Sequence record: SRR31156797_3702
Strand: one strand, 5' to 3'
DNA length: 45,194 nt
The first letter of the stretch is position 1. The number at the start of each line of letters is the position of its first letter. Both the position numbers and the translations under genes were made by a program. Below, in pieces: positions 21,384 through 43,501 of the stretch. Below the pieces are notes generated by a model. The model saw nothing but the letters and a program-made list of their open reading frames with translations. It did no database searches and was not told the origin of the DNA.

Positions 21384-21385
21384 TC

Positions 21386-21547: not shown

Positions 21548-22216
21548 ATGGCCGGACCATTGAAAAAACTGACCATTGAAGCACACCGTGAACCGGATTA
21601 TTCCGGCAGTGCTGCTGAGACTTTCACCGCGATGTTCAACCCAACGTCCTATACCCAGAAATATGAACTGGAATACCAGGACGAGCAGGGAGCCGGCACA
21701 ACGGGGAGCCCGCAGGTTTTCGGAAAAATCAAACCGCAGGATTACACCTTTGAGCTGGTATTCGACGGAACCGGGGCAATTACCGACACCAAGGATGTCC
21801 ATGAGGAGGTTGAGCATTTCCTGAAAGTCACCGGTAAGCATGATGGTGAAATCCACCGCCCGTTCTATCTCAAAATTTCGTGGAGTAAACTTACGGTAAA
21901 GTGTGTGCTCAAGTCTGCCGACATCACCTATAACCTTTTCAAGTCGAACGGTGATCCGCTCAGGGCAAAAGTCAAAGCCGTTTTTTCTGAGAACATCGAA
22001 GAAACGCTGCGTGTGGCCAAAGAACGGAAAAGCTCGCCCGATCTCACCCATGTAAAGCAGGTGCAGGATCAAACCACTCTGCCTTTGATGGCACATCGCA
22101 TCTATAAAAATCCGGCCTACTATTTTCAACTGGCTCAGGCCAACAAACTAAAACATTTCAGGAACCTGGAAACCGGGACAAACCTCACATTTCCTCCGGT
22201 TAAAAATGCCGAATAA
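21548..22216 (+). CDS. CIS tube initiator with C-terminal LysM-like domain (Afp7-like)
   Basis: LKKLTI, MFNPTSY, FDGTG, GDPLRAKV, SPDLTH...TLPLMAHRIY...LAQANKL. Confidence 0.88.
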   Translation: MAGPLKKLTIEAHREPDYSGSAAETFTAMFNPTSYTQKYELEYQDEQGAGTTGSPQVFGKIKPQDYTFELVFDGTGAITDTKDVHEEVEHFLKVTGKHDGEIHRPFYLKISWSKLTVKCVLKSADITYNLFKSNGDPLRAKVKAVFSENIEETLRVAKERKSSPDLTHVKQVQDQTTLPLMAHRIYKNPAYYFQLAQANKLKHFRNLETGTNLTFPPVKNAE

Positions 22217-22218
22217 CC

Positions 22219-23967: not shown

Positions 23968-23969
23968 AT

Positions 23970-24248
23970 ATGCCGGCAGCAGCACGAATAACTGATACAT
24001 CCACACATGGTGGCACCATTGTAGGGCCTGGCGACCCGACCGTATTGATCGGTGGAATGCCGGCGGCAGTAGCCGGCGACAATCACATTTGTTCCCTGCC
24101 ACCAAATGTGCATCAGCCTACTGTGAGCCCTTTCCCCATGGGAAGCACTACGGTACTTATCGGCGGAAAACCGGCCATCAGGGTTGGCGATGTGTGCATC
24201 TGCGGCGCATCACCGGCCGTTGGGGAACCCACAGTTTTAATTGGATAA
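23970..24248 (+). CDS. PAAR-repeat spike tip protein
   Basis: MPAAARITD..HGG, TVLIGGMPAA, GSTTVLIGGKPAIRVGD, His/Cys residues as likely Zn ligands. Confidence 0.93.
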   Translation: MPAAARITDTSTHGGTIVGPGDPTVLIGGMPAAVAGDNHICSLPPNVHQPTVSPFPMGSTTVLIGGKPAIRVGDVCICGASPAVGEPTVLIG

Positions 24249-24250
24249 TT

Positions 24251-24661
24251 ATGGAACAGGAACATCAATTCATAGGTACAGGATGGGGTTTCCCCCCGAC
24301 ATTCAGAAAGACTGACCAGTCTGTGCAAATGGCTTCCGGAAGGGAAGACATCGAGCAGAGCCTGGAGATTTTGCTCAGCACCCGGGTCGGCGAACGGATC
24401 ATGCAGCCCAAATACGGCTGCAACCTCGACCGCCTGATTTTTGAGCCGCTGGACTCAACATTGGTGACCTTTGTGAAAGACCTGGTTGAAACGGCAATTC
24501 TGTATTTCGAGCCACGTATCCTGGTGAATAAAATTGCTGTGGAACCAGTGCAAAACGAAGGCAAACTGGAGATCAACATCGATTATACCATCGCGGTCAC
24601 CAACACGCGATACAACTATGTTTTTCCATTTTATAAAACCGAAGGAACCGAGGTATCATAA
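24251..24661 (+). CDS. GPW/gp25-family baseplate protein (Afp9-like)
   Basis: FIGTGWGFPP, DIEQSLEILLSTRVGERIMQPKYGC, FEPRI, NYVFPFY; true start is the ATG at 24251 just after the PAAR stop. Confidence 0.92.
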   Translation: MEQEHQFIGTGWGFPPTFRKTDQSVQMASGREDIEQSLEILLSTRVGERIMQPKYGCNLDRLIFEPLDSTLVTFVKDLVETAILYFEPRILVNKIAVEPVQNEGKLEINIDYTIAVTNTRYNYVFPFYKTEGTEVS

Positions 24662-28857: not shown

Positions 28858-31800
28858 ATCATCTCATAAAGAATCTGAAGCTCAAACCCAGCCAGGATTG
28901 GGCTTTGCTGCGCAGCGAAGGGATCACCCACATCGAAAAGCTGGCCAGCAGGCTGTGGACGGATTATAACGTCCATGATCCGGGGATTACCATCCTGGAA
29001 TTGCTTTGCTATGCCATTACCGATCTCGGCTACCGCACCGATTTTGAGATTAAAGATTTGCTGACCAGGCTCGTGAATGGCAGCGATCCGGATACCGGGG
29101 ATTTTTATACCGCGGCAAAAATCCTGCCTTCTTCAGCTGTTAGCTTCGATGACCTCCGCAAACTTTTGATCGACATCACCGGTGTCCGCAATGCCTGGGT
29201 GTCGAAAAATACCGAAATCAGCTATTGTCTCGACACGGCTGATCATTTACTGAAAGACACCTGCACAAAAAGCACAGATGAACAACTGGCCCCACTCAAC
29301 GGGCTTTATGATGTTTTGATCCAGACGGAAGACAACATCACCGACGAGCCACGCTACAGCTATGCGGCAAAAAAAGATAATGCCGGCGATGGCGGTTATG
29401 TGACTGCCGGAACCAAAGGCATCGAATTTAAAGTGTTATACACGTTCACATTGCAATTGGTTTATGTTTATGCCCAAAATCCGGGAATGGTTAACGTGAG
29501 ATTGTTGCGGAAAAATGAATCCGGTGTTTACCAGGCTGTTGAATCTGTAAGCCAGGATATTCCAAATGCCGATGAAAAAACAGCAATTATCACCGGCTTT
29601 GCACTTGACCCGGGCGAGTACCGTCTGGATGCCAATGGCTCGGCAACGCCGCTTTTCAGTAACAACAATTACGATTATTCAAGGGTTTTTCCCAACCTGC
29701 TTCACCTGCAAAATGGCTACAGCGGATCGGCAAAAAACGCCAAATATTACTTTTTCTATGATTGGAAAGTCTCATTCGTGGTTTCACCTTTCGACAAGGA
29801 GTTACTGGATTCCGGGGAATTGTTCGAAGGGATTGCCGGGCTGTCAATAAAAGACACCGGCATCAGCGGAGGTTTCATTTTGCCCGGTGGCAAGGGACTA
29901 CAGTTCAATGTTTATTCAACGCTTTACCTCAGCACCATTACTGTATTCCCCGAAAGTTCCGGCAACATCCAGGTTACCATTTCGGATGGCAACGGGAATG
30001 AAATTTATGCACATGCATTTGATGTTGAACCGGCACCCGATGAGGGGTTTATACTCTACCTGGACACAAAACTGGATCCAGGAAGTGGATATGAAATCAA
30101 AGCCGATGGATCGGTTAAGCTTTATCGTGATACCGGAGTTACCAATTTTCAGGCTGAACCCAATCCTGTACTGGAGATCAAAAAAGGAATTCCTACAGCA
30201 GATTATTACTTTTTCTTTTATCACTGGGAATTTGAGTACTACCACCCGGTGCCATTTACATCACGCCTCACACTGGAGGAAGTTATGCTTGCTGTTGAGG
30301 ACACCATCTACAAACACCGCAACCTTTGCGAAGACCTGATGCACATCCGTGATCTCGAACGGGAATTCATAGGTGTTTGCGCAGACATAGAAGTGGGTGA
30401 TGATGCCAATATTCAGCAGGTAATGGCCGATATATTCTTTGAACTGGAGTTTTATGTTTCGCCACCGGTGATCTTTTACACCATCGAAGAATTGCAAAAA
30501 CGAGGCTACACCACCGATGAAATTTTTGAAGGGCCCTCACTGCAGCACGGATTTATTGATGATGCTGAATTTCAAAAAATCCAGCGAACCTGCTTCCTGC
30601 GTACTTCGGATATTATCCAGATCATCATGGATGTGCCGGGTGTGAAAGCCGTAAAGAATATTTCATTGCTAAGCTATACAGAAGTTACGCCGGAAAACCC
30701 CATAAAACCGGGCGATCAGGTTGTTACCATCGATGGAACACAATTTATTGTCCGCGAAGAAGACTGGATTCTGGAGCTGGCCAACCCGGCAAAAATGGCA
30801 CCGGATTTCGATCCTGAGAAATCAAAAATCGTATTTTATAAAGACGGCCTGCCCTATCTGCCAAACATCAACAAAGCACTTGACCTTTACAACGAACGCC
30901 GTTCGCTGATGTCATCCCGTAAACTCATCGGCATTCAGCGGGATTTCCCCGTGCCTGTGGGCGAGTTTATGGATGTTGAAAAACACTTCCCAATCCAAAA
31001 CGACCTGCCGGCCACCTATATGGTCGGATCGCATCGTGTGCCTGATTCAGAGACTGATTTACGGCGGGCACAATCTCGTCAGCTCAAGGGATACCTGATG
31101 TTTTTTGAACAGATACTTGCCAACTATTTCTCCCAACTGAGCCATATCCGGGAGTTGTTCAACTGGAAAAATAATGAAATCAAAACCTACTTTACCCAGA
31201 TTGTGAAAGACATTCCGGGTATCGAAGACATATACAGCTGGGATGAATCCATCACCGACCCGGGAATGGCCGAACAGGTATTGGAAAAGCTCAACGAAAT
31301 TATTGAGTCACCCAAAGTTGCCGAAGAACGCAAGAATCGCTTTTTGGATCATCTCATGGGCCGGTTTGCCGAAGATTTTACCGAATACAGCCTTTTGATG
31401 TATTCGGTGTATAAAAAATCTGCTGCAAAAAAACTCATCAGTGACAAGCGCGATTTCCTCAACGATTATCCTTTGTTGAGCCGGGATCGCGGACTCGGAT
31501 TTGACTACCGCTACCCCTTTGCAAGCGAAAATATTACCGGCCTGCAGCGCAGAGTGAGCCGACTGATGGGGTTCGATGATGTGAGCCGCCGCAACCTGGC
31601 AGGAAGTAGTCTCAGGATCGACAGGCTGGAATCTGACGAAGGAGAAAACTGCCCGAAAGACAGCTGGCGCTTTGAATACGTAGATGCAGAGGATCAGGTG
31701 CTCTTCCAAAGTGTTTGTTGCAAAAGCCGCGACAATATTTGCATTTTACTGGATGCTGCCATCCTGATTGGTGCCTGCCCCGACAATTACCGGTTTGCTG

Positions 31801-32474
31801 AAATCGGTGGCAAATGGCAATTGCTTAATGCCTGTGAGGATGAAGAGGTAATCGGGACCATGGTGGTTGATGGAGATAATGCACTGGCAGAAGTCCAGGC
31901 CTATTTTGCAAAACTGGCAGGCAACGAGGGCTTCCACGTGATTGAGCATATCCTGCTTCGCAAACGGATTGAAGAAGACGACTTCATGCCGGTTCAGCTC
32001 AACGATCCGGGCACGGACTGTGAGGACGCCTGTGTGGAGGTAAAAGACCCATACTCTTTCAGGGCAACCGTGTTTTTACCTGCCTGGCCAAAACGATTCC
32101 AGAACATACGCTTCAGGCGCCTGATTGAACGCACTTTGCGAATGGAAGCGCCGGCACATGTTTATCTGAAAATATGCTGGCTCAGTCACTGCGACATGCT
32201 ATCATTCGAAAAAATATACAACGAATGGCTGGCTGTCTTCAGCAGGGTGGGTGTTGAATACAAGGGAAAACCCGACATCAGCCTTTCCGTTTTTACACCT
32301 GGCAGCGACGCGTATGAATTACTTGCGGAACACAACGAAAAATTGTCGGAACTGATCGGAAAACTGCATGGCGTGGACAATGTTCAGCCACTTGCAGCAC
32401 TGCACGACTGTCTGAACCCGGACAGTGAGAACCCACAAATTACACTCAATCAAATGAGTTTAGGATCACAGTAA
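28845..32474 (+). CDS. Second baseplate wedge protein (Afp12-like), 1209 aa
   Basis: WTDYNVHDPGITILE.LCYAITDLGYR, RNLCED, QLKGYLMFFEQILANY, NRFLDHLMGRFAE, EGFHVIEHILLR, DPYSF, EAPAH. Confidence 0.88.
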   Translation: MPEIDHLIKNLKLKPSQDWALLRSEGITHIEKLASRLWTDYNVHDPGITILELLCYAITDLGYRTDFEIKDLLTRLVNGSDPDTGDFYTAAKILPSSAVSFDDLRKLLIDITGVRNAWVSKNTEISYCLDTADHLLKDTCTKSTDEQLAPLNGLYDVLIQTEDNITDEPRYSYAAKKDNAGDGGYVTAGTKGIEFKVLYTFTLQLVYVYAQNPGMVNVRLLRKNESGVYQAVESVSQDIPNADEKTAIITGFALDPGEYRLDANGSATPLFSNNNYDYSRVFPNLLHLQNGYSGSAKNAKYYFFYDWKVSFVVSPFDKELLDSGELFEGIAGLSIKDTGISGGFILPGGKGLQFNVYSTLYLSTITVFPESSGNIQVTISDGNGNEIYAHAFDVEPAPDEGFILYLDTKLDPGSGYEIKADGSVKLYRDTGVTNFQAEPNPVLEIKKGIPTADYYFFFYHWEFEYYHPVPFTSRLTLEEVMLAVEDTIYKHRNLCEDLMHIRDLEREFIGVCADIEVGDDANIQQVMADIFFELEFYVSPPVIFYTIEELQKRGYTTDEIFEGPSLQHGFIDDAEFQKIQRTCFLRTSDIIQIIMDVPGVKAVKNISLLSYTEVTPENPIKPGDQVVTIDGTQFIVREEDWILELANPAKMAPDFDPEKSKIVFYKDGLPYLPNINKALDLYNERRSLMSSRKLIGIQRDFPVPVGEFMDVEKHFPIQNDLPATYMVGSHRVPDSETDLRRAQSRQLKGYLMFFEQILANYFSQLSHIRELFNWKNNEIKTYFTQIVKDIPGIEDIYSWDESITDPGMAEQVLEKLNEIIESPKVAEERKNRFLDHLMGRFAEDFTEYSLLMYSVYKKSAAKKLISDKRDFLNDYPLLSRDRGLGFDYRYPFASENITGLQRRVSRLMGFDDVSRRNLAGSSLRIDRLESDEGENCPKDSWRFEYVDAEDQVLFQSVCCKSRDNICILLDAAILIGACPDNYRFAEIGGKWQLLNACEDEEVIGTMVVDGDNALAEVQAYFAKLAGNEGFHVIEHILLRKRIEEDDFMPVQLNDPGTDCEDACVEVKDPYSFRATVFLPAWPKRFQNIRFRRLIERTLRMEAPAHVYLKICWLSHCDMLSFEKIYNEWLAVFSRVGVEYKGKPDISLSVFTPGSDAYELLAEHNEKLSELIGKLHGVDNVQPLAALHDCLNPDSENPQITLNQMSLGSQ

Positions 32475-32497
32475 CTAACAAGCAAATCACAAGCATT

Positions 32498-35400
32498 ATG
32501 GATACGCAGCATTTTTTTCCAGACTTTAAGCCCAACCAGGTTCTAACCAGTACCCAGCTCAACCAGTTGCGCCAGTACCTTGTTGATCAAACAAGGTTAA
32601 GCAGGGTGCGCCTCACTGGAACCGGCATCATTTGCGGCCTCTACGGAAACACCAACACTGGCGAAACGATAAAGATAACCGGGGGTTACGGGATTACCAC
32701 GGATGGATACATCATCGAAATACCAGATACAATCTATCCGAAATTCAGGAATTATTTCGATCCGGATACCGTTGATCCTGAAAACGACGATGACGATCCA
32801 TACCCGGAATATGAACCATGGAGAACCATTGCCATTCCCTGGCAACAGATTCCCATCCTGGAGCTGATGAGCGAGGAGGTACTGAACGATCCTGATTTTG
32901 TGGAACAGGAAGACAACCCTACACAGGACCTGAGTGCTGAGATACTGGATGGAAAAGTGCTGGTGTTGTATCTCGAAATGTTTGATGACCCCCTCAAATC
33001 ATGTATCGTAACCGATTGCAACAACAAAGGTGAAAATGTTGTACTCACCGTTCGGGCATTGCTCATTGATAAAGCATTTCTGGATGAAGTTCAGCCCTGC
33101 GGCGAGAAAGATGAACTGATCCATTTCCCGAAATTAAATGCCTGGCTTCAAACAAAAGGAAAAAACCTGTCAGATGTAGAAAATAGCGGAGAGCTCAATA
33201 AAGCATATCAAAATTTGGCTTTAAAAGCCGTTGATCAGATCAACGATAAAGTTACGAAAGCCTATAACAAATATAAGTCGATCTTAAACCTCGAACCCCA
33301 GTTCACCGAAATGGTGGCCGGCCTGTCGGATACATTGGATAATGTGACCGGCGGCAGTTTTAATCAGTATCATTTTGATTTCGTACGAAACCTGGCAAGG
33401 TCATTCAATGAATTTGCCGATACGATTTGTCCGCTCGTGAAAACGTGCATGGCTGATGGTGCTTCCCCCCGGCACCTGATGCTTCGCGATTTTATACACG
33501 ATGAGGCCGGCATGGGTGATTCGGGGAAATACCGGCATTATTTTATGCCATCCCCGGCCAGAAACGTATTACACGAAGACCTGGAAAAAGCCCAAAAGCA
33601 ATTCGCGCGAATTTTGCACCTGGCATATAATTCTGATTTTGGTTCGGCTGATGCGATAAAAATTACGCCCGGTAAAACGCCTGCTCATCCACCTGGCGAA
33701 AATGCGATACCCCATTATTACAAGCTGGGTGCGGTGGAAAAATGGTGGCAACCCGATGGTTGCTGTGAACTCCATCCGCCGCTTTCCTATCATAAAAATA
33801 AAATGGCCCAATCGCCGGATTCCATTATGCCGCTTGATACTCAGGCTCATCCGCTGCATCTCGATCCCGGCAGGTTCAACTTTTATAATATCGAAGGCAT
33901 AATGGGTAAGCAGCTTGGTGATGCCATTCAAAAACTGGAAAAAATCAAAAAGGATTTCAACCTGGAGTTCGATTTGCTGGGCCTGAGTTTCGATCAGTTT
34001 GAGGGTGGTGGTGTTTACCAGGGCCTGGAGCCGATGATCGAATTGCTGAAAGAGATCGAAACCCTCAGACAAACGCTGGAAATTGCAATCATAGATGGTG
34101 TGGAAGAAAACCAGGAACTGATCATGGAATTGCTTGAAGAAATCGCTGCCAAAGAAACAGCGGTTCTTGAACTGAACACAACATGGATTGAGCAGCGCAG
34201 GGCGATATCGGCAAACTGCAATATTTCGCACCTTCAGGCCGACTACCTGCAACTGCGCAGTGAGCTGATTTGCACTTATCAGAGCATATTGCAATCGCTG
34301 GATAAAATTCCGGAAATACCTCCTCCACAGGCCGGGGACGGTTGTGTTGACTTCGATGAGCTTGAACCTGAAACAATGTTCGATGGTGACGACTTCCCTC
34401 CCGGAAGCGAAATATTCAGCGAAAGCAACATCCCCGTAACATTGCATGAATATTTCTGGACCAACGGAGGCATAGGATACAACTGGGCTATGGTTCAGCC
34501 GGCAACCGCCGATTTCGGTGAAGGCAATATTATGTGGACCAACAACGTGAACCTGGGCTTTGATTTTACCAATCTTGAAACGGCACCTAACAAGGTTTCC
34601 TTCCTTTATAAAAATGATGGCGGATCAGAGAACATCCAGGTGAATGGCGGTGAGCGTGAAATCGTAAGGATCAGGAATGCCGAAGGAGAAATTGCCCCGG
34701 GCGTATTTCTCGAAGTAAATGTGATTAGTGAAGATGCCGGCATTTTCATGGCCATTCTTACCGGGCCTGTTCAGGACCTGAAAGTCGGCGGTCAGGAATT
34801 TTCTATCGATCAGGTATGTGCAACGGCCGATGAAGCGAGTGTTCCCTCCTATCCATTAAAAATTGTAAATCTCAAACGGCAATCGCTGGAAAGGTCTGTT
34901 TTTAAATTGGTGATTAAGCGCAACAACGCAAAATCCCCGGAAGAAAAAGGAAAATACAGCATCAGAATTGAACGACTCAATAAGGAAAAATCAAACCTCG
35001 AAAATATCAGTAAAATCTCCGGTTCGGTGAACAGGCTGATCAATGATGTGATGGTGAACAGCCATATCTCAGGTATGAAAAGACGTACCGGTGGAAATGG
35101 TTTGAGCCCGATGGCTGCTGCCGGCGCCAACCCCACCCAGGACCTGGCCTATGGCTTTTTCATGGCTGTACTCGATCTGCGTTCCCGTATTTCCCTGCTG
35201 CTCGATATCCTGCCAAAAGATGTCCGCGGATTCAACTACCTGCTTTACAGCAACACCGTAAAAGAGATACTGGAACAGATTGTAAGAGTCCGCATGTTTG
35301 TGAATTACCTGTTGGATGTTTTGGTGGCAGGGAGCGGAACAATAGCACCGCTGATGCGATTCCTGGCAGGGCCGTTATTGTCATCCATGACAAAGAACCT

Positions 35401-37219
35401 GGCCCAGCTCATGGATTTTATGAATGCCTATTTCAAAATCCGGTACAACTGTTTCCCGGCTCAACTGGCTACCATTTATTTCCATTTGGAACATTTGATG
35501 AATCTGCACCTGGCCAACTTCGGCAAATTCGCTCATAAGCATCCGGGAATGGAGCACATTGCAGGCGTTCCAAAAGGTGGGACATTTATCCTGGTGGGTG
35601 AAAAAGCACAGATAAATCAATTGGTGCGTGCTGATTTTGCATTAAACGGAATGGCTGAGTGTTGTTGTGAAATCGATCCCGAAGACATTTGTCTGCCGCC
35701 CATCGCACGCATCGACAACAGGCTGGCCGAAGCTGAAATTGACCCGCAAACCGGGGCACTGCTACCAATAGATATTACTATTGACATAATGGGCAACGAC
35801 CTGAACCTGAACAAACCCGGAACAGCCTTTGAACTCAGCCTGAAATCAGAAGTATCCAGAATGGGTGCTTCCCTGAGCATTATTGATGACGATGATGGCA
35901 GGAAGTTGATTAGATATGTACTTCAGGAACCCCAATTGGGAATCGATGAATTCGCCTACGAAATAACTGAAAATACAGAGCGTTGCCAGCTATCCGACAA
36001 CGGAAAGGTGATCCTGATGGTTCGCCAAAAATCAAATGTACCCATGTATGCAGGTGGTGACCTCGCTGTTACACACCAAAATACACCCGTGATTGTGGAT
36101 GTAGCGTTGAATGATGTATTGAATCCGCAAATGCTGGATTCCGGTTATTCACTCACAGCTAACGCCACTACGCCAAATGGAAACATTGTGGAAGTGATCA
36201 CCATTGAAGACCGCCGGGCTGCACTTCATTTTATACCCATAGAAGGATTTACCGGCCGCGACCAGTTTGCTTATACCATCAACTTTGCCAACACCAGAGC
36301 GTCAGGCATTGTAACAGCTTTGGTCATTCCATGCTGCGATGGTCAGGGTCAGGGTCAGGGATCAGCGCCGGCAATGATTAGCGGAAGCGTTTTCGAACGC
36401 ACCGTTGAAGGGCTGGAAGGTGCCCTGTCAGGTGGTACCGCATCCCTGATGCAAAGTGGAAACACCCTCAAAAACACGGTAATCAACAAAGGACAATATA
36501 CTTTCAGGAATGTTTCTTCGGGAACTTATGACATTCAATTGGCGCGGGTGAATGCAGCCACAGGTGAACCCACCCACGAGACCAAAGTCCTCAATAATAT
36601 TGTGGCTAATGAGGGTCAAACCACTACACTCGAACTGGTTTTTCTGGATGAAATCCCCAGGGGAAACAGCCCCGGCTTTTCCTTCCCGCGTGATCTCAAC
36701 CAACTGGAACCGCTTATCGCAAACCTGGAGAACAACGCTGGTTTTAAAAAAGCTGAAGCACAAAAAGTAGTGCTTGATACATTGCCGCCAAGAATGGCCG
36801 CCCGAACGGATATTGTAAACGAAATAAAAAATGGCGGACTTGTAGCCGATGGCGAACTGCTTGAAAAAACCGGAGATCTGGTTTCAGGTAAGTTGCTGTC
36901 AGAAGGCGGCAGCACCATGCGCACGTACAAGCAGACTATGACCAAACTGATCAGTAACCATGCATCATCCAGGGGTGCTGAAAAAACAGCATACCGCGCA
37001 CTGATTGATTCAACGGTTACGTCGATGCTGGATGAAATTGCCGTTTCGGATATTTCGCATTTATCCCAGGGCAAACAAAAGCACGTCACCGACGTCATCG
37101 CGCAGTTGAAGGAAGCCGGCATTTCAACCAACAGCATCCGCAAAATGTGGAAAAGCGGAACATTGAAGGACGATCTGAAGATATCCGCAGTAACCAAAAT
37201 GAATAAGTTTTTAACATAG
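32498..37219 (+). CDS. Large tail-fibre-like protein (Afp13 position), 1573 aa, with Ig-like modules
   Basis: N-terminal FKPNQVLTSTQLNQL..YL..Q.RLSR..L.G.GIICGL, typical of the Afp13-position protein; HPGMEHIAGVPKGGTFILV; C-terminal Big_9-like and carboxypeptidase-regulatory-like segments. Confidence 0.7.
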   Translation: MDTQHFFPDFKPNQVLTSTQLNQLRQYLVDQTRLSRVRLTGTGIICGLYGNTNTGETIKITGGYGITTDGYIIEIPDTIYPKFRNYFDPDTVDPENDDDDPYPEYEPWRTIAIPWQQIPILELMSEEVLNDPDFVEQEDNPTQDLSAEILDGKVLVLYLEMFDDPLKSCIVTDCNNKGENVVLTVRALLIDKAFLDEVQPCGEKDELIHFPKLNAWLQTKGKNLSDVENSGELNKAYQNLALKAVDQINDKVTKAYNKYKSILNLEPQFTEMVAGLSDTLDNVTGGSFNQYHFDFVRNLARSFNEFADTICPLVKTCMADGASPRHLMLRDFIHDEAGMGDSGKYRHYFMPSPARNVLHEDLEKAQKQFARILHLAYNSDFGSADAIKITPGKTPAHPPGENAIPHYYKLGAVEKWWQPDGCCELHPPLSYHKNKMAQSPDSIMPLDTQAHPLHLDPGRFNFYNIEGIMGKQLGDAIQKLEKIKKDFNLEFDLLGLSFDQFEGGGVYQGLEPMIELLKEIETLRQTLEIAIIDGVEENQELIMELLEEIAAKETAVLELNTTWIEQRRAISANCNISHLQADYLQLRSELICTYQSILQSLDKIPEIPPPQAGDGCVDFDELEPETMFDGDDFPPGSEIFSESNIPVTLHEYFWTNGGIGYNWAMVQPATADFGEGNIMWTNNVNLGFDFTNLETAPNKVSFLYKNDGGSENIQVNGGEREIVRIRNAEGEIAPGVFLEVNVISEDAGIFMAILTGPVQDLKVGGQEFSIDQVCATADEASVPSYPLKIVNLKRQSLERSVFKLVIKRNNAKSPEEKGKYSIRIERLNKEKSNLENISKISGSVNRLINDVMVNSHISGMKRRTGGNGLSPMAAAGANPTQDLAYGFFMAVLDLRSRISLLLDILPKDVRGFNYLLYSNTVKEILEQIVRVRMFVNYLLDVLVAGSGTIAPLMRFLAGPLLSSMTKNLAQLMDFMNAYFKIRYNCFPAQLATIYFHLEHLMNLHLANFGKFAHKHPGMEHIAGVPKGGTFILVGEKAQINQLVRADFALNGMAECCCEIDPEDICLPPIARIDNRLAEAEIDPQTGALLPIDITIDIMGNDLNLNKPGTAFELSLKSEVSRMGASLSIIDDDDGRKLIRYVLQEPQLGIDEFAYEITENTERCQLSDNGKVILMVRQKSNVPMYAGGDLAVTHQNTPVIVDVALNDVLNPQMLDSGYSLTANATTPNGNIVEVITIEDRRAALHFIPIEGFTGRDQFAYTINFANTRASGIVTALVIPCCDGQGQGQGSAPAMISGSVFERTVEGLEGALSGGTASLMQSGNTLKNTVINKGQYTFRNVSSGTYDIQLARVNAATGEPTHETKVLNNIVANEGQTTTLELVFLDEIPRGNSPGFSFPRDLNQLEPLIANLENNAGFKKAEAQKVVLDTLPPRMAARTDIVNEIKNGGLVADGELLEKTGDLVSGKLLSEGGSTMRTYKQTMTKLISNHASSRGAEKTAYRALIDSTVTSMLDEIAVSDISHLSQGKQKHVTDVIAQLKEAGISTNSIRKMWKSGTLKDDLKISAVTKMNKFLT

Positions 37220-37220
37220 A

Positions 37221-37260
37221 AACCTGATAATTTTTCAGGTTGATAAAGGTGTTTTATCAA
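37221..37260 (+). other. Two overlapping short hairpins after the fibre gene (possible terminator or processing signal)
   Basis: AACCTGA/TCAGGTT (37221-37241) and TTGATAAA/TTTATCAA (37240-37260). Confidence 0.4.
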
Positions 37261-37287
37261 TTTGATGCATGAGCTAATTCCAAATAT

Positions 37288-37385
37288 CTCTGTGGACCTT
37301 TGTGTCTTCTCTGTGTAACTTTGCGCTATAGCCTAAAATTGCTGTTACACTAAGACACACAAAGCAGTCACAAAGTTTCGCAAAG
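37288..37385. repeat. Intergenic palindromic element of phased heptamers (REP/MITE-like)
   Basis: Left arm CTCTGTG, CTTTGTG, CTCTGTG, CTTTGCG at 37288/37298/37309/37319; right arm CACTAAG, CACAAAG, CACAAAG, CGCAAAG at 37348/37358/37369/37379. Confidence 0.8.
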
Positions 37386-37465
37386 GGGTTTTTACTCGAT
37401 TTATAATTTTCTATTTTTTTTGACAGCCTCATTTCACCATTAATATTTGAATTAAACAAGAAAAA

Positions 37466-39010
37466 ATGGCAGGCCATATCATCCATAAACAGACTTTTAA
37501 TATTGGTGTCGCCACCGATGACCAGGCGCACGACACCGGGAATATGGTCAGGGATGCGTATGTGAAAAAGGTTCTTCCTGCGCTTGATCATGTTTTTTCA
37601 GCATTATCTCCTGATGACCAGGTTTACAGGTTTGATCGCATTGAGATTGATTTGGGGATCCTGCCTGTTGAAAATCTGGATGCAGAGCTGCCGGACAGGA
37701 TGACCAAACTAATTGAGGAAGCAGTTACAGAAAGCATTGAGCACTCCTCATTCAATCTGCCGGAAAGCGGCAAAATGAAAGTGATCCCGGTGAGTGCTTC
37801 ATTGTTCGATGCTTTTGTTTATTATCTCAAACACGGCATACTGCCCTGGTGGTTTTCTGAACAGGATACAAAGCCGGATGAACTTTTTGCTGAAATTCCG
37901 GGAACCCTACACGAACAACAAATTAAAAAACTGGAACATACCTTCAAACTGGAGAAGGCAAGAACCCGGCTGGCTCAGCAATTTTCGGATGATTTTGTTT
38001 CGGGCATCCTCGGGGCCATGCAAACTACAGGAACCAATTGGCCCGAAACTGAAGAGGGTCAGGAACCTGTTTTATTCTCAGAATTTTTATCCGGAATGGT
38101 CAACACCCTTGAAAAACTCCAGATACCAATGAAAATCACGGCGGATTTCAGGGTGGAGATGATGCGGGAAATGCTGGATCATAAGTTGGCCCTTTCGCAT
38201 TTTCCGCTGGAATTTGATCCCAAAAAAACGGACAAAGCGCTCCGGGATTTCATCGCGAAAAGTGTGGGCATCCTGATAAAAACGCTGGCCCTACACGGGG
38301 TTGAAGCTAAGGATATCATCTCCCTTCTAAATCGAATTCGTGAGCTGCTGTCAGAAAAATCAATTCCCGGTTTTTGGTTCAGCCGGCAAAACTTCACCCT
38401 AAAAAAAATCAAGGAGATTATAAAAAAATCAGGAAAACTACCTGCACCAAATACTACATCAGAAGAAACGGATGCAGTTTATACAGATGAAGAAATACCC
38501 TATGCCGACGATACCGGGATTTACATCAAAAATGCAGGGGCAGTTTTACTTTGGCCATTTTTAAAAAATTATTTCGATAAGGTGGGGCTCCTTGCCGGCG
38601 ATAAATTTAAATCATCCGCGGAGCAAAACAGGGCTGCTGTGCTCCTGCAGTATGCCATTACCGGCGATGATGAATTCGCAGAATATGTACTGCCACTGAA
38701 TAAAATCATGTGTGGGATGCCGGTGGATGAACCCGTGAACACAGACCTAAAAATCCCGACTAAAGAAAAAAAAGAAACCGAAGCGATGATACAATCGGCT
38801 ATCCAAACCTGGAAAACCATTGGCAAAGTGAGTGTGGAGGGGTTTCGCGAATCTTTCCTGAAGCGGGAAGGCAGGCTAAAATTAACCTCAAACGGTTGGA
38901 GCCTGAAAGTGGAACGAAAAACCATCGATATCCTGCTGGACAAACTTCCGTGGATGATCAGCATGGTGAAACTCAAATGGATGAAACAAATGATTTATGT
39001 GGATTGGTAG
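37466..39010 (+). CDS. Contractile injection system tape measure protein (Afp14-like)
   Basis: HIIHKQ...RIEIDLG, YLKHGILPWW, IYIKNAGAVLLWPFL, LNKIMCG, FLKREGRL, DILLDKLPW...W. Confidence 0.92.
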   Translation: MAGHIIHKQTFNIGVATDDQAHDTGNMVRDAYVKKVLPALDHVFSALSPDDQVYRFDRIEIDLGILPVENLDAELPDRMTKLIEEAVTESIEHSSFNLPESGKMKVIPVSASLFDAFVYYLKHGILPWWFSEQDTKPDELFAEIPGTLHEQQIKKLEHTFKLEKARTRLAQQFSDDFVSGILGAMQTTGTNWPETEEGQEPVLFSEFLSGMVNTLEKLQIPMKITADFRVEMMREMLDHKLALSHFPLEFDPKKTDKALRDFIAKSVGILIKTLALHGVEAKDIISLLNRIRELLSEKSIPGFWFSRQNFTLKKIKEIIKKSGKLPAPNTTSEETDAVYTDEEIPYADDTGIYIKNAGAVLLWPFLKNYFDKVGLLAGDKFKSSAEQNRAAVLLQYAITGDDEFAEYVLPLNKIMCGMPVDEPVNTDLKIPTKEKKETEAMIQSAIQTWKTIGKVSVEGFRESFLKREGRLKLTSNGWSLKVERKTIDILLDKLPWMISMVKLKWMKQMIYVDW

Positions 39011-39016: not shown

Positions 39017-40375
39017 ATGACGAATAACAAAAAACATACAGCAAATAATACGCCTGATATTGTGAAGGAGTTATCGTGGCTTGAAGATGTGCTGCGAACC
39101 CGGATTGCTTTGCACTTTGGCGAAGAGTGTGAATGCAGCCGGATTGAGGAGCTGGAGGCACCAAAACTTGTTAAACAGAATTCGGTGTATGCCAACCTGG
39201 TAAACCATTACAGGCTAAATCAGCCTGAGCGTATCACCCTGCTAATCACTTTGGCACCCCACCTGAAACCCCAGGCACTGGATATTTTTTTCAGGACAAA
39301 CGAAAAAACAAACCGGGGATTTACTGAATTTGGCGGAATCAGGGGAACAATGCACGGCGGCTTCCTGCCAACTGCCGAAACCGTTCTGTTCACGCTGGCC
39401 GGAAACGACATTGAACTCCGGATGAAGCATCAGCAACTTTTTAGCTCTGATCATATTTTTGCCAAACACAACATCCTGAAGATTGATGCACCCCCTGACA
39501 ATGAACCCATTTGGAGCGGTAGCCTGCAGCTCTCCGAAGAACTGATCGACCTGATCACCCTGGGGCAGATACGTAAGCCGGATTTCACCCGGAGTTTTCC
39601 CGCAAAGCGCATTTCCACCGAAATAACCTGGGATGAACTGGTACTCAACCATGAAACCATGGACCAGGTGCAGGAACTCATCACGTGGATTGCCCATGAA
39701 AAAACACTCATGGCCGACTGGGAACTGAGCCGCATTTTGAAACCCGGATACAAATGCTTGTTTCACGGCCCTTCGGGCACCGGGAAAACGCTCACGGCCA
39801 GCCTCATCGGGAAGCAGGTCGGGAAGGATGTTTACCGGATCGACCTGTCATCGGTGGTTTCGAAGTACATCGGGGAAACCGAAAAAAACCTGGAAAAAAT
39901 TTTCAACAAAGCGTCCCAATTGGATTGTATCCTGTTCTTTGATGAAGCCGATGCGTTGTTCGGGAAGCGTACCAACATCAGCGATGCCCACGACCGGTAT
40001 GCCAACCAGGAGGTGTCGTACCTGTTGCAGCGTGTGGAAGATTTCCCCGGGCTGGTTATCCTGGCCTCCAATTTTAAGAGTAACATGGACGATGCTTTTC
40101 TGCGAAGGTTTCAATCCATCATCCACTTCCCCATGCCGGAAGCAAAGGAAAGAAAACGCTTGTGGGAGCAATCTTTTTCCAAAAAAACAAAACTGGAAAA
40201 AGGCATGGATTTCTCGGAAATATCCAAAAAATACAAACTGGCCGGGGGGTCAATTATCAATGTCGTCAGGTATGCCTCCCTGATGTCGGTATCGAGAAAG
40301 TCCAATGTGATTAAACAAAGTGATGTTGTAAAAGGAATACGCCGCGAATTTCAAAAGGAAGGAAAGACGATCTGA
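39017..40375 (+). CDS. eCIS AAA+ ATPase (Afp15/Pvc15-like)
   Basis: Walker A GPSGTGKT, SKYIGETEKNL, Walker B LFFDEADALFGKR, DRYANQEVSYLLQR, DDAFLRRF. Confidence 0.95.
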   Translation: MTNNKKHTANNTPDIVKELSWLEDVLRTRIALHFGEECECSRIEELEAPKLVKQNSVYANLVNHYRLNQPERITLLITLAPHLKPQALDIFFRTNEKTNRGFTEFGGIRGTMHGGFLPTAETVLFTLAGNDIELRMKHQQLFSSDHIFAKHNILKIDAPPDNEPIWSGSLQLSEELIDLITLGQIRKPDFTRSFPAKRISTEITWDELVLNHETMDQVQELITWIAHEKTLMADWELSRILKPGYKCLFHGPSGTGKTLTASLIGKQVGKDVYRIDLSSVVSKYIGETEKNLEKIFNKASQLDCILFFDEADALFGKRTNISDAHDRYANQEVSYLLQRVEDFPGLVILASNFKSNMDDAFLRRFQSIIHFPMPEAKERKRLWEQSFSKKTKLEKGMDFSEISKKYKLAGGSIINVVRYASLMSVSRKSNVIKQSDVVKGIRREFQKEGKTI

Positions 40376-41188: not shown

Positions 41189-43501
41189 ATGACTTCTAAA
41201 ACTTCGGAAACCAAAAGTATCAGCAGGCCAGTATCATCTGTTCCTGTTCAGGCCAAACTGAATGTAAATAAGCCCGGCGACCGCTACGAGGTGGAAGCAG
41301 ACCGGGCTGCAGCTTCGGTGATGAGCCACATAGAAGGAAAATCGAAAAACACGGATGCGGGACCGGCCAGCCTTGATATTTCCCGATTGCAAAATGGAGG
41401 TGGCCAAAATCAGCAGCAACGGTGTGGTGAAGAGGAAGAGATGCAAATGAAGATACAACGCCAGGCTGGGGAAGAGGAGGAGGAAATGCAGATGAAAGTC
41501 CAGCGTCAACCTGAGGAGGAGGAAGAGGAATTACAAATGAAAGTGCAACGACAAAGCGAGGAGGACGAAGAAGAGGAGGTTATACAGCCAAAAGTGCAAC
41601 GACAGGCGGAGGAAGAGGAAGAAGAGATGCAGATGAAGGTGCAGCGCTGTGGTGAGGAAGAAGAAGCCATACAATCAAAGGAAGATGGTTCGGGATCTTC
41701 AAACAACGGAACAACTCCGCAGGTGGAGAGACGGATAAACCAACGAAAAGGAGTAGGATCAACCCTCGATAGCAATGTAAAAGGAGAAATGGAAAGTGGA
41801 TTTGGAGCCGACTTCAGCAGTGTACGGGTTCACAACGATGCGGAAGCTTCCAAAATATCGTCAGATTTAAATGCACAGGCTTTCGCCACCGGAAACGATA
41901 TATATTTTAATGAAGGAAAATACCAGCCCGATACCTCATCGGGAAAATCCCTGCTGGCACACGAACTCACACATGTGGTACAGCAGAATGGGGGCTCTAA
42001 CGAAATCGCCCGAAAATCGGCGGCCGGAGAACTTGTGGTGGAAAAACCCGTGCACGACACTGCCGGAAACTCACCGCAGTACAAACACATTTCAGGACAA
42101 ACTGAAACTGAAATTCAGCGCGAAGTGGGAGACGTACCAGATGCCGGGCCAACAGGAGATACTGCCGATGCAGGCCCGTCTGATAGTGGTGGAGATTCGG
42201 GTGAAACCTCACCCTCAGATGATGGCGGTCCTCCACCCGACCCTGCTTCCCCCACTCTGAACATTACACCGGGAAATACCCTGACCCGCGGCGAAACCCT
42301 CAAGGCAACCATCATGTTTCAGCCCAACGGCGATGAAACCTACAATGTTACAGCATGGCAATTTTCAACTGCCGATCATGGAAACATCAGCCGGCCACAG
42401 GGAGAAAGTGAGTTCCAAAACAAGTGGGATGGTAAAATGGCGGTTTCAGGAACTCTGACAGTTACTTTCAGGATTACGCCGGAAGGCGGCACTGAAGGGC
42501 CCGAACAAACGCTTGTTGAAGAAATCACCGTAGAAGACCGCACCGGAGATGATTGGGAGTCGGAGGTGGATGAACAACCCGAAACGCCATATAGCAGCTC
42601 TCCTTCACCACCAACCAGATTTCCTCACCTGGGCCATCACAGTGCAAACGTTACCAATCCCGATCCCGATCTGGAAACAATCGATGGAGGCCCCAACAAA
42701 GATCTCCGTTTTGTAAATACACTCGCTGCAGGAACCTATACATCACAAGGACAGATACATCCTGACCTGCTCAACAACACCAGTGATTTTTACACCTTCC
42801 ACCTGAATGCCGGAATTCTGTATATCGTTGAAGGAAACACCCGAACTGAAGTCCCCAGAGCAGAATACAGTGACCTTGAAATAGGCGAAGACAGTATAAG
42901 TTTTGATGTTCCTGATTGGGAGGCATTTTACAAAAGTCATGATATTGCCCGTGTGGTTGCTTATACCGAGGATGAAGAGAATACTTTTGTTGTGCCTGAA
43001 ACAGCATGGGAACTGGATGCCAATGAAGAGGATGCCGGGGCAAACATTACAGATGAAACCGTGGTGAGAAACGGCCTGGGTATCGGACAGGATGAGGGCT
43101 ATGGTTTCAGGTTGGAGTTTCCCAAAAGCTTTGAAGCCACCAAACTGATGCAGGCTCCCGACATTCTCACCGGCACCCGTAGTCACGAATATGCTCATGG
43201 AACACATAGCCACCGGGCAAATTTCCTGAAAATGATGCGTGCATTGGATCCGGAAAAGAAAATTGAAAATAAGGTGTCTTCCTCCCAGAGTACAGTAAAT
43301 TTCAGCAGATTACTGCGTGACTGGCGTGACGAAATCCTGGAACCCAATCATGAAATTGTGGACGAGGCAACATCCGAAGAGCAGGAAGAATTTACAGCAG
43401 TAAGCGGCGAAACCATGGCAGGCATAAACACAGACCCGGATACAGGTGCAAACCTGGGGGCCGTATGGAATATTTCTTCCAACCAGGCCATGGGCAACTA
43501 A
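41189..43501 (+). CDS. DUF4157 (eCIS core domain) protein with acidic repeats and uncharacterised C-terminal domain
   Basis: QAKLNVNKPGDRYEVEADRAA; FGADFSSVRVH...AQAFATGNDIYF..GKYQP....GKSLLAHELTHVVQQ. Confidence 0.9.
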   Translation: MTSKTSETKSISRPVSSVPVQAKLNVNKPGDRYEVEADRAAASVMSHIEGKSKNTDAGPASLDISRLQNGGGQNQQQRCGEEEEMQMKIQRQAGEEEEEMQMKVQRQPEEEEEELQMKVQRQSEEDEEEEVIQPKVQRQAEEEEEEMQMKVQRCGEEEEAIQSKEDGSGSSNNGTTPQVERRINQRKGVGSTLDSNVKGEMESGFGADFSSVRVHNDAEASKISSDLNAQAFATGNDIYFNEGKYQPDTSSGKSLLAHELTHVVQQNGGSNEIARKSAAGELVVEKPVHDTAGNSPQYKHISGQTETEIQREVGDVPDAGPTGDTADAGPSDSGGDSGETSPSDDGGPPPDPASPTLNITPGNTLTRGETLKATIMFQPNGDETYNVTAWQFSTADHGNISRPQGESEFQNKWDGKMAVSGTLTVTFRITPEGGTEGPEQTLVEEITVEDRTGDDWESEVDEQPETPYSSSPSPPTRFPHLGHHSANVTNPDPDLETIDGGPNKDLRFVNTLAAGTYTSQGQIHPDLLNNTSDFYTFHLNAGILYIVEGNTRTEVPRAEYSDLEIGEDSISFDVPDWEAFYKSHDIARVVAYTEDEENTFVVPETAWELDANEEDAGANITDETVVRNGLGIGQDEGYGFRLEFPKSFEATKLMQAPDILTGTRSHEYAHGTHSHRANFLKMMRALDPEKKIENKVSSSQSTVNFSRLLRDWRDEILEPNHEIVDEATSEEQEEFTAVSGETMAGINTDPDTGANLGAVWNISSNQAMGN
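41417..41679 (+). repeat. Six degenerate intragenic repeats (QRxxEEEEEMQMK; 39-51 nt)
   Basis: QRCGEEEEMQMKI / QRQAGEEEEEMQMKV / QRQPEEEEEELQMKV / QRQSEEDEEEEVIQPKV / QRQAEEEEEEMQMKV / QRCGEEEEAIQSK. Confidence 0.9.

Follow-up and report, generated by a model that had tools for sequence, protein, structure and literature searches.

eCIS particles are under development as devices for programmable protein delivery; for most of their natural cargos no activity is known. The AlgoCIS proteins Cgo1 and Cgo2 follow the plan NTD-DUF4157-CTD (N-terminal domain, DUF4157, C-terminal domain); they lie within the lumen of the tube, and the NTD is needed for their loading (PMC8894135; bioRxiv 10.64898/2026.05.27.728243). 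In eCIS-associated toxins (EATs) such as EAT11 (a deaminase) and EAT14 (transglutaminase-like) DUF4157 is N-terminal to the payload, which often follows a long linker, and the genes are described at or near the 3′ end of the eCIS operon, often without an immunity gene (PMC8213781; PMC11297309). VgrG2b, a T6SS gluzincin of P. aeruginosa, has a DUF4157-annotated HExxH region delivered by a contractile machine; there the HExxH domain is the toxin, located C-terminally on a spike protein and accompanied by a cognate immunity gene (PMC6899460).

The gene described here encodes a new payload family within this known architecture. It was found in a window of 45,194 nt (the whole stretch of DNA analysed), close to the 3′ end of an eCIS operon (16761-45116) that is complete. 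The ORF 41189..43501 (+ strand) has an ATG start and a 770-aa product; the near-identical N-termini of relatives P0003 and P0005 (alignment A1) speak for this start. The features of the operon and of the protein are as follows.

16761..39010, + strand, eCIS structural genes (Pfam and NCBIfam matches)
39017..40375, + strand, AAA+ ATPase of the eCIS operon (Pfam AAA, E=4e-29)
41189..41419, + strand, N-terminal leader, aa 1-77 (alignment A1)
41246-41323, + strand, leader motif VQAKLNVNKPGDRYEVEADRAAASVM, aa 20-45, common to DUF4157-bearing relatives
41420..41683, + strand, acidic tandem repeats, aa 78-165, five units of ~15 aa
41765..41995, + strand, DUF4157 / eCIS_core (PF13699), aa 193-269 (Pfam E=1.8e-31)
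41957-41974, + strand, AHELTH of DUF4157
41960-41974, + strand, HELTH, aa 258-262
41996..42250, + strand, linker, aa 270-354 (from composition)
42251..42538, + strand, CTD part 1, Ig-like beta-sandwich, aa 355-450 (AlphaFold2: eight strands, pLDDT 92-98)
42539..43150, + strand, CTD part 2, beta-rich middle, aa 451-654 (AlphaFold2 secondary structure)
43151..43501, + strand, CTD part 3, alpha/beta end module, aa 655-770 and stop (conservation, AlphaFold2)
43181..43213, + strand, His cluster SHEYAHGTHSH, aa 665-675
43614-45116, + strand, downstream gene, 500 aa, PG_binding_1 at the N-terminus (Pfam)

The structural set comprises a cap (Pvc16_N), a sheath, two gp19-type tube proteins, CIS_tube and spike/hub, together with gp25, three large baseplate-type proteins and a tape measure. 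The genes for cap, sheath, tube, spike, gp25, baseplate, tape measure and AAA are all on the same strand (16761-40375), and ORF 41189-43501 comes two genes after the AAA ATPase. By analogy with the role described in bioRxiv 10.64898/2026.05.27.728243, this ATPase is presumably the cargo-loading ATPase; a homologous ATPase is encoded directly upstream of the CTD-family gene in loci L002, L006, L007 and L009. The N-terminus of the 1573-aa protein matches PDB chains 9wt0_a and 7b5h_AA (All3314), which is uninformative on the target.

Judged by the published descriptions, the product resembles Cgo1 and Cgo2 in its low-complexity, putatively disordered N-terminal region, in the DUF4157 at its centre and in the variable, folded CTD, and all are encoded in eCIS operons of Bacteroidota that include an AAA+ ATPase gene. 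Among the DUF4157-bearing relatives found, however, none has the length of Cgo1 (498 aa) or of Cgo2 (1228 aa), and whereas loading and location in the lumen were shown for those two proteins, we infer them for the product of 41189-43501. The position of DUF4157 ahead of the payload, the place of the gene in the operon and the missing immunity gene are as in EATs; the EAT payloads fall into recognisable toxin families and their toxicity was demonstrated, whereas the CTD (aa 355-770) matches no family. Such an unannotated C-terminus is the common case, because 983 of the 1130 predicted DUF4157 EATs lack any further annotated domain (PMC11297309). With VgrG2b the protein shares the DUF4157-type HExxH region and, putatively, delivery by a contractile machine; in contrast to VgrG2b, DUF4157 is central here, a larger unrelated domain follows it and no immunity gene was seen.

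The protein is likely a cargo of a phage-tail-like injection machine, given its DUF4157, the acidic repeat leader, the position in the eCIS operon and the Cgo1/Cgo2-like plan. Our preferred explanation, to which we give roughly even chances, is that it is a cargo of the eCIS encoded immediately upstream and that its payload is a candidate metal-dependent hydrolase in which the end module is catalytic.

As read from the sequence, the leader does not begin with a hydrophobic, signal-peptide-like stretch. Its consensus in alignment A1 is QxKLxxxxPxDxxExEADRxAxxV. In every unit of the acidic repeats a stretch of Glu precedes MQMKVQRQ; with Tandem Repeats Finder the period is 45 nt over 41432-41571 (2.3-2.7 copies, 75-78% matches), and the copy number varies among relatives. 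The whole NTD (aa 1-192) is of low complexity, with 19% Glu and 12% Gln, and the repeats (aa 78-165) are presumed to be disordered. The PF13699 match is strong, scoring 108.5 bits where the cut-off is 22 and spanning positions 2-78 of the 79-position profile, and the linker contains 14% Gly, 12% Ser, 12% Pro and 12% Asp. These data agree with the preliminary description, made from the sequence alone, of a DUF4157 with AHELTH followed by a Gly/Pro/Asp linker; its statement that DUF4157 is an eCIS marker N-terminal to variable toxin domains accords with PMC8213781, and the locus holds a full eCIS operon.

The CTD (416 aa) is acidic, with 74 Asp and Glu against 28 Lys and Arg and a pI of 4.36, and the His cluster lies exactly where it had been reported. 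No Pfam match was found for the CTD, even at E<=10, and no NCBIfam match; neither the CTD nor the whole protein matched PADLOC or PHROGs. Sequence searches of the PDB with the CTD, with a 60-sequence profile and with the full protein (the last at E<=1) gave 0 matches each, and a search of the ESM Atlas gave no usable match. When all 60 family members were scanned with Pfam at E<=10, only eCIS_core (38/60) and scattered single-member noise appeared. The CTD is a conserved His-rich domain without a match in the libraries searched; the proposed profile search of aa 355-770 thus matched no known family, and the earlier view of the C-terminus as undescribed holds for Pfam, NCBIfam, PADLOC, PHROGs and PDB sequences, with Foldseek returning Ig-like sub-domains only.

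Structure prediction, also proposed earlier, gave a model of the whole CTD with a pLDDT of 96.4 (AlphaFold2), in which an Ig-like sandwich comes first, a beta-rich middle follows and an alpha/beta module forms the end. We treat the three as parts of a single conserved payload unit. Part 1 (aa 355-450) resembles single Ig-like domains (Foldseek prob 1.00, TMt 0.44-0.53), among them 5imk_A and 5imm_A (TMt 0.53, prob 1.00) and 4brv_A (TMt 0.44). Part 2, whose boundaries were drawn from predicted secondary structure only, had no PDB or BFVD match as a unit (top TMq 0.18 and 0.21). The end module remained well predicted when aa 622-770 were modelled alone (pLDDT 93.7); the isolated module had 0 matches in the PDB at E<=0.001, the best being at E=1.9. 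With the whole CTD as query against PDB and BFVD, Foldseek returned only Ig-like or sandwich sub-domain matches (TMq <= 0.21).

Several other assignments were tried and rejected. A diverged DUF4157 copy as the origin of the end module, as well as a repeat of the Ig part in the middle part, are out by hhalign (probabilities 0.1-0.9%; 0.8% over 9 columns for the end module against the protein's own DUF4157). HNH/EndoVII-type toxins (SHH, GHH, AHH), HEPN, PD-(D/E)xK (PoNe), 2H phosphoesterase, HD, aspzincin, metzincin and type-3 copper sites are unsupported by Pfam, predicted secondary structure and Foldseek.

The fold matches bear on an unlikely, though by no means negligible, alternative, namely that the CTD has a binding or structural function and no catalytic one (a glycan- or protein-binding sandwich array, or a tube filler or plug) and that activity resides in the DUF4157 zincin. 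The sole matches are to Ig-like and carbohydrate-binding sandwiches (CBM 2c26, SGBP-B 6e57, GhpA), to a phage N4 capsid chain (9e99_J) and to phage Ig-like and tail proteins, and the N-terminal half of the CTD recurs beside PKD domains in P0080, P0082 and P0091. Each of these matches, however, spans one sandwich only and not the whole CTD, while the helical end module is the most conserved part and its invariant His, Glu, Ser and Asn are more typical of an active or metal site. Conservation of the CTD also argues against a binding role: judged in L007, it is at least as conserved as the adjoining structural genes (48% identity for the CTD, 41% for the C-terminal part of the sheath, 30% for the tube protein and 41% for the AAA ATPase). 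As to activity in DUF4157, a domain of this type is itself a HEXXH-dependent periplasmic toxin in VgrG2b (PMC6899460), and HELTH is present here; the full protein nevertheless had no PDB sequence match at E<=1, the solved C-terminal domain of VgrG2b included. Two counterpoints to an enzymatic CTD should be recorded: the Foldseek matches suggest no enzyme class, and beta-sandwich-like structure, as found in binding proteins, makes up two of the three CTD parts.

As a single sequence, the His motif is only mildly unusual: among 20000 shuffles of the CTD that preserved its composition, 640 contained HExxH and 235 had at least four His within 10 residues. It is conservation, not rarity in one sequence, that sets the motif above chance. 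In alignment A2, H666, E667, S674, H675, N678 and H721 are invariant (60/60), D725 (57/60) and E726 (58/60) nearly so, and core positions of the end module are conserved in 57-60 of 60 sequences; the His/Glu core pattern holds down to 24% identity, and the conserved core also aligns with distant relatives. In the middle region R451, G482, G501, N503 and F534 are invariant and H484 is kept in 59/60. In the model H666-E667 close one helix and S674-H675-R-x-N678 open the next, followed by H721-x-x-V-D725-E726 and W760. The preliminary description had taken loss of conservation in the His cluster as the outcome that would speak against it; H666, E667, S674 and H675 are kept throughout, whereas H670, the second His of HExxH, is present in 41/60 and H673 in 48/60.

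That the CTD represents another classical HExxH zinc metallopeptidase (zincin), in addition to DUF4157, is in our judgement very unlikely. HEYAH (aa 666-670) has the first His and the Glu invariant, the His-Glu dyad lies at the C-terminal end of a helix with more conserved His nearby, as in zincins, and the HExxHxxHxH of the close subfamily loosely recalls the metzincin motif HExxHxxGxxH; the CTD of Cgo1, where a second metalloprotease-like motif was reported as here, is also a predicted metalloprotease (PMC8894135). Yet in 19/60 sequences Gly, Asp or Trp takes the place of H670, and since the predicted helix ends at aa 669 H670 falls just past the helix and not on the same face. No zincin fold or profile match was obtained either: at E<=10 Pfam returned Peptidase_M48 in 3/60 members (best E=0.022) and Peptidase_M4 in 1/60 (E=0.1) and no peptidase for the window's own CTD, the comparison with the protein's own DUF4157 gave the low probability quoted above, and no zincin was among the matches listed for the end module (54 at E<=10). 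The motif cannot be upheld as a conserved ‘second HExxH’.

The candidate metal site would instead consist of H666, H675 and H721, with E667, D725 and E726 nearby. The payload is probably a metal-dependent enzyme, as judged from residue conservation; the likeness to a catalytic site is drawn from the His/Glu/Ser/Asn conservation down to 24% identity together with the confidently predicted fold. The invariant polar residues could equally keep the fold or form a binding surface. Growth inhibition by Cgo1 was reported to need the metalloprotease motifs of neither DUF4157 nor CTD (PMC8894135), and this counts against an enzymatic CTD here.

If the preferred explanation, an eCIS cargo with a metal-dependent hydrolase as payload, is correct, the operon's AAA+ ATPase would assist in recognition of the leader, and the protein would be passed into the lumen of the tube; contraction would then expel the cargo into or onto the target cell, where the payload would act. 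The end module would be the catalytic part, with the metal bound through H666, H675 and H721 and with H670 and H673 as added ligands in the close subfamily. E667 and D725/E726 may serve as acid/base or as further ligands in what would be a metal-dependent hydrolase of a new type, and the Ig-like and middle parts may position the substrate. Judged from its context only, the CTD is a putative toxin domain.

The CTD family is rare: an exhaustive search of 1.84 billion cluster representatives returned 64, of which 24 had E<=1e-30. A word-indexed search yielded 35 relatives that cover the CTD (97-100% of it, except the truncated P0007 with 64%), and PF13699 was present in 32 of these. In all 78 proteins matched by the end module at E<=1e-3 the best stretch ends at most 10 residues from the C-terminus. 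Relatives without DUF4157 (P0036, P0037, P0049 and P0050) still have N-terminal extensions ahead of the same CTD, which fits a domain attachable to different leaders. Both leader and DUF4157 are absent from 14 distant relatives of alignment A2; the CTD is therefore not restricted to eCIS cargo. Leaderless distant relatives include P0056, P0060 and P0074.

Ten genomic loci of relatives were found using alignment A1. Their MAG labels (Bacteroidetes, Lentimicrobiaceae, Kapaibacterium, Acidobacteriota, two Chloroflexota, two Burkholderiales/beta-proteobacterium, Gaiellaceae and Verrucomicrobiae) represent about six phyla. In 8/10 loci eCIS genes adjoin the homolog, and neighbours common to several loci are eCIS structural or ATPase genes only: AAA, Pvc16_N cap, CIS_tube, a GPD-like hub protein, spike and an ORF of ~100 aa of no known family between CIS_tube and the hub gene. 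The homolog in L010 is surrounded by housekeeping genes, and eCIS genes are absent within 9-10 kb of it; like the 14 distant relatives, it is a counterpoint to the eCIS cargo reading.

Gene order also bears on a role in the producing cell, as an assembly, maturation or release factor with DUF4157 processing the protein or other cargo, which we consider highly improbable. In L003 and L005-L009 the homolog is inside the operon, ahead of CIS_tube, hub and spike, as a core gene might be, and in L006-L009 an AAA ATPase gene is also upstream of it; DUF4157 is listed as an eCIS core domain with a possible role in loading or maturation (PMC8213781), and the peptidoglycan-binding domain of the next gene could serve lysis. 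But the CTD family, with its 64 representatives, is rare while DUF4157 occurs in eCIS loci of 13 phyla (PMC8213781), so the CTD is an optional module and not a core part. Moreover, other DUF4157 genes with different C-termini adjoin the homolog in L003 and L008, as expected of exchangeable cargo.

No immunity gene conserved with the CTD was found downstream in the window or across the 10 loci. The gap of 112 nt between ORF 41189-43501 and the next + strand gene at 43614 has no small + strand ORF of at least 50 aa in the ORF list, and in L001, L002 and L010 the downstream genes are unrelated. The earlier remark that no immunity-like gene follows is borne out here and in the relatives. Its extension to a eukaryotic target is not: the missing gene is no pointer to such a target because many eCIS toxins that kill E. 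coli are also described without immunity genes (PMC8213781).

At present the protein is one more unannotated DUF4157 cargo. Its CTD family is tractable, given the very confident predicted structure, the short list of invariant candidate-catalytic residues and the spread across phyla, and defining the activity of the CTD would add a new effector class.

The linker contains a conserved EIQRE (IQR at aa 309-311, nt 42113-42121), after which comes a tract rich in Gly, Ser, Pro and Asp, and the Arg of IQR is kept in at least 90% of alignment A1. A bolder combination, in our estimation a long shot, is that the end module would be a new metalloenzyme fold and a new effector class spread horizontally through eCIS of at least six phyla, with [ILVM]-Q-R as a DUF4157 self-cut site that frees the payload. 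If true, the self-cut would give DUF4157 its long-sought function, that of a self-processing release protease. The existence of versions with and without DUF4157, and of an [ILVM]QR with a fixed place before the payload, makes the family a good system for the role of DUF4157. The last [ILVM]QR lies 12-53 aa upstream of the CTD start in 33 of 45 close relatives; the motif is also repeated within the leader.

The target gene belongs to a complete operon for an extracellular contractile injection system (eCIS), in which it sits close to the 3′ end. The cluster runs on the + strand as follows.

Genes of the eCIS cluster (position, strand, product)
start 16761, +, cap (Pvc16_N)
start 17334, +, product of no known function, 361 aa
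start 18436, +, sheath
starts 20464 and 20940, +, two gp19-type tube proteins
start 21548, +, CIS_tube
start 22219, +, spike/hub
start 24089, +, gp25
starts 24661, 28845 and 32498, +, three very large baseplate-type proteins
start 37466, +, tape measure (CIS_TMP, E=2.4e-115)
start 39017, +, AAA+ ATPase
40375-41181, +, 268-aa protein, product not assigned
start 41189, +, target
43614-45116, +, 500-aa protein with N-terminal PG_binding_1, last gene of the cluster

Unrelated genes are found 5′ of 16761 (glycogen-type enzymes, a large Fe-S flavoprotein, chemotaxis and two-component fusions). A CheB-CheR-PAS fusion protein (868 aa, 2350-4956, −) and a multi-domain Fe-S/FAD oxidoreductase (1077 aa, 12008-15241, −) are outside the eCIS locus and have no bearing on the finding. 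The short cap (Pvc16_N only, 190 aa) followed by the 361-aa protein of no known family (16761-18419, +) resembles, by description, the short cap and separate cap adaptor of AlgoCIS (PMC8894135). The 1398-, 1209- and 1573-aa proteins (24661-37219, +) gave weak matches only, of baseplate-J type (TIGR02243) or to Big_9; PDB chains 9wt0_a (PKD domain-containing protein, E=9.5e-36) and 7b5h_AA (All3314, E=1.1e-29) are matched by the 1573-aa protein at its N-terminus. No tail fibre gene was identified within the eCIS locus of the window.

The target (41189-43501, +) encodes 770 aa from an ATG start backed by near-identical N-terminal residues in close relatives; the coordinates assigned to it in the preliminary description were all correct. 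The protein is composed of an acidic low-complexity leader, DUF4157 (now PF13699, eCIS_core; aa 193-269, E=1.8e-31 in Pfam, AHELTH at nt 41957-41974), a linker rich in Gly, Ser, Pro and Asp (aa 270-354) and a folded C-terminal domain (CTD, aa 355-770). Cgo1 and Cgo2 of AlgoCIS have the same plan; they are reported to occupy the tube lumen and to be lost upon contraction, and their loading, described as requiring the disordered N-terminal region with DUF4157 dispensable, is thought to involve the AAA+ ATPase of the operon (PMC8894135; bioRxiv 10.64898/2026.05.27.728243). Geller et al. count DUF4157 among the eCIS core domains and place it N-terminal to toxin domains, often with long linkers between (PMC8213781), and Danov et al. 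report no other annotated domain in 983 of 1130 predicted DUF4157 toxins (PMC11297309). Given this shared plan and the DUF4157 literature, the target is probably an eCIS cargo, and we read the CTD as its payload. The delivery architecture is already known, and an unannotated C-terminus is the usual case for DUF4157 proteins. The apparent novelty is the payload family, which is rare and spans several phyla. Its invariant polar residues are few and form a compact group, its model has very high confidence, and no relative by sequence or by fold turned up in the libraries searched. No description of this family was found in the portions covered of the eCIS, DUF4157 and VgrG2b literature.

The acidic leader (window 41432-41571) is built of 45-nt tandem repeats encoding a Glu run and MQMKVQRQ, and its copy number varies widely in relatives (P0003, P0005, P0008, P0010, P0012); P0005 has ten [ILVM]QR copies ahead of its CTD. 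The target has six copies of [ILVM]-Q-R, all N-terminal to the CTD: five in the acidic repeats (aa 89, 104, 119, 136 and 151) and one in EIQRE (aa 309; window 42113-42121). In the 60-sequence alignment of relatives (A2), at least one copy precedes the CTD in 41 of 45 close relatives, and the last copy is 12-53 residues before the CTD start in 33 of them, including five proteins that have no Pfam DUF4157 match (P0028, P0036, P0037, P0049 and P0050). Copies inside the 416-aa CTD occur in only 3/45, and none was seen before the CTD in the 14 distant relatives that are leaderless or otherwise fused. The Arg of the motif is at least 90% conserved in A1, another alignment of the target with its relatives. 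Speculatively, [ILVM]-Q-R might serve for docking or processing; if it is where DUF4157 cuts, the role of DUF4157 would be explained.

The CTD is acidic (D+E 74 vs K+R 28; pI 4.36) and had no match in Pfam, NCBIfam, PADLOC or PHROG. A word-indexed search with aa 355-770 found 35 proteins with 39-88% identity and 97-100% CTD coverage, except for the truncated P0007 (64%); PF13699 is present in 32 of the 35. When 1.84 billion cluster representatives were scanned exhaustively with phmmer, 64 proteins scored E<=1e-3; of these, 42 reached E<=1e-10 and 24 reached E<=1e-30. Pfam was run on 41 relatives (38 new ones from the phmmer scan plus P0028, P0036 and P0037): eight have eCIS_core, three have PKD domains and align to roughly the first 185 CTD residues only (P0080, P0082, P0091), one has a sub-threshold ceramidase C-terminal match and the remaining 29 match no Pfam family. 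Distant members form two groups, with either the whole CTD in leaderless proteins that begin directly at the Ig-like part (P0056, P0074, P0057, P0065) or only the last ~115 CTD residues behind unrelated N-terminal regions (e.g. P0060, P0061, P0064, P0073). With this end module (~aa 655-770) as query, 78 proteins were found at E<=1e-3 among the relatives gathered, and in all 78 the best-matching stretch stops no more than 10 residues short of the C-terminus.

The end module carries SHEYAHGTHSH, located exactly at nt 43181-43213, which the preliminary description had taken for a second HExxH. Judged on one sequence, SHEYAHGTHSH is no more than mildly unusual (among 20000 shuffled CTDs, HExxH appeared in 640 and at least four His within ten residues in 235), and its significance therefore comes from conservation. 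In A2, with sequences down to 24% identity to the query, H666, E667, S674, H675, N678, A685, P688, E693, H721 and W760 are present in 60/60 (full-protein numbering), as are R451, G482, G501, N503 and F534; H484 is found in 59, E726 in 58, D725 in 57 and H673 in 48 sequences. The family signature is T-[RQ]-x-H-E-[YFH] ... S-H-[RK]-x-N ... R-A-L-[DE]-P ... H-x-[IV]-V-D-E ... W-[ND]. The His cluster is conserved and hence real; however, the conserved unit is HE + SH + H + DE and not HExxH, as H670, the second His of HExxH, is kept in 41/60 and is otherwise Gly, Asp or Trp.

The AlphaFold2 model of the CTD, built from the 60-sequence alignment, has mean pLDDT 96.4 and pTM 0.87, with 407 of 416 residues at pLDDT >=90. 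Its secondary structure delimits three parts.

Parts of the CTD in the AlphaFold2 model
CTD 1-96 (aa 355-450), eight-stranded sandwich
CTD ~100-300 (aa ~454-654), beta-rich region with a few short helices
CTD ~300-416 (aa ~654-770), alpha/beta module

In the model one helix ends at H666-E667, the next opens with H675, H721 is ahead of a short strand and another helix begins at D725-E726. On the conservation pattern by itself, the preferred reading of the payload is a metal-dependent hydrolytic enzyme, with slightly under even chances. H666, H675 and H721 would build the putative metal site, supplemented in the close subfamily by H670 and H673; E667 and D725/E726 would be catalytic or ligand carboxylates, and the Ig-like and middle parts may help substrate binding. 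Reading the CTD as a classical zincin is opposed by the loss of H670 in part of the family, by the predicted helix geometry and by the absence of a fold or profile match in the searches. Whole-CTD Foldseek against PDB returned only Ig-like, CBM and surface-glycan-binding-protein sandwiches (maximal query TM-score 0.18), with single Ig domains fitting the model well (e.g. 5imm_A, TMt 0.53); against BFVD only Ig-like, PKD and tail proteins were found (TMq <= 0.21). These sandwich folds speak for a rival reading, in which the CTD has a non-catalytic role in binding or structure and any activity belongs to DUF4157, as does the report that the DUF4157-type domain of VgrG2b is itself an HEXXH-dependent periplasmic toxin (PMC6899460). 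On its own (aa 622-770), the end module was modelled at pLDDT 93.7 and had no Foldseek match in PDB at E<=0.001 (best E=1.9, probability 0.02). PDB sequence and profile searches gave no match, and ESM Atlas no usable one. A separate idea, that the end module is a diverged copy of the target's own DUF4157, was rejected (profile-profile probability 0.8% over 9 columns).

Ten loci with a CTD-family homolog (L001-L010) were taken from species-representative genomes, all MAGs, labelled Bacteroidetes, Lentimicrobiaceae, Kapaibacterium, Acidobacteriota, Chloroflexota, Promineifilaceae, Burkholderiales, beta-proteobacterium, Gaiellaceae and Verrucomicrobiae. By BLASTP with the eCIS proteins of the window, eCIS genes adjoin the homolog in eight (L002-L009); in L001 a contig edge is just 5′ of it, and in L010 an orphan homolog, still with DUF4157, is among housekeeping genes. 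The L010 homolog (9071-11245 in a 4.2-Mb Verrucomicrobiae chromosome) is flanked by genes for radical SAM, undecaprenyl diphosphate synthase, adenylosuccinate synthetase and squalene/phytoene synthase, with eCIS genes absent within 9-10 kb. An AAA ATPase gene is immediately 5′ of the homolog in L002, L006, L007 and L009; in L008 one DUF4157 gene separates the two. The closest full locus is L002 (identity to the window 74% for AAA, 58% for the 1573-aa protein and 39% for the tape measure), where the homolog comes directly after the ATPase and is last in the operon. Second DUF4157 genes with a different C-terminus adjoin the homolog in L003 (1737-2831) and L008 (7156-8745), which suggests multi-cargo loci; one of the two has a weak match to DUF6782, a putative metallopeptidase. 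The homolog is mid-operon in six loci, as would suit a producer-side assembly or release factor, a role against which the rarity of the family and the exchangeability of the adjoining DUF4157 genes argue. In L009 (beta-proteobacterial MAG) two overlapping ORFs, 9212-10792 and 10728-11237, make up the CTD-family gene (9212-11237), the split being due to a frameshift or else to an error in assembly. The AAA gene immediately 5′ is fragmented too.

When all ORFs located up to 3 kb from the homologs were compared with one another, nearly every neighbour shared between loci proved to be an eCIS structural or ATPase gene (AAA, Pvc16_N cap, CIS_tube, GPD-like hub protein, spike); the sole other one is a ~100-aa ORF of no known family between the CIS_tube and hub genes. 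No small immunity-like gene is conserved beside the family among these ORFs in the ten loci. The lack of such a gene after the target, earlier taken to fit a non-self target, was confirmed, but it fails to discriminate between targets because, according to Geller et al., many E. coli-killing eCIS toxins likewise have no immunity genes; they suggest late expression or DUF4157-mediated inactivation, among others, as alternatives (PMC8213781).

None of the ten related loci has an equivalent of the 268-aa or the 500-aa neighbour of the target. The 268-aa ORF separates the AAA ATPase gene from the target. Its start overlaps the stop of the ATPase gene, its N-terminus is basic and rich in Ser, and it contains a further HExxH (HENMH, aa 154-158, nt 40834-40848). 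It had no match in Pfam, NCBIfam or PHROG, none in PDB at E<=0.1 and a PADLOC match at chance level only (E=0.031); it may be a second cargo. In the 500-aa protein PG_binding_1 spans aa 79-143 (E=1.2e-8), endolysin PHROG matches are confined to this part and ~350 C-terminal aa are unrecognised. Possible roles are those of an effector directed at peptidoglycan and of a lysis/release factor. As to what the target protein acts on, this PG_binding_1 neighbour hints at peptidoglycan, either that of a bacterial target cell or, in lysis, that of the producer.
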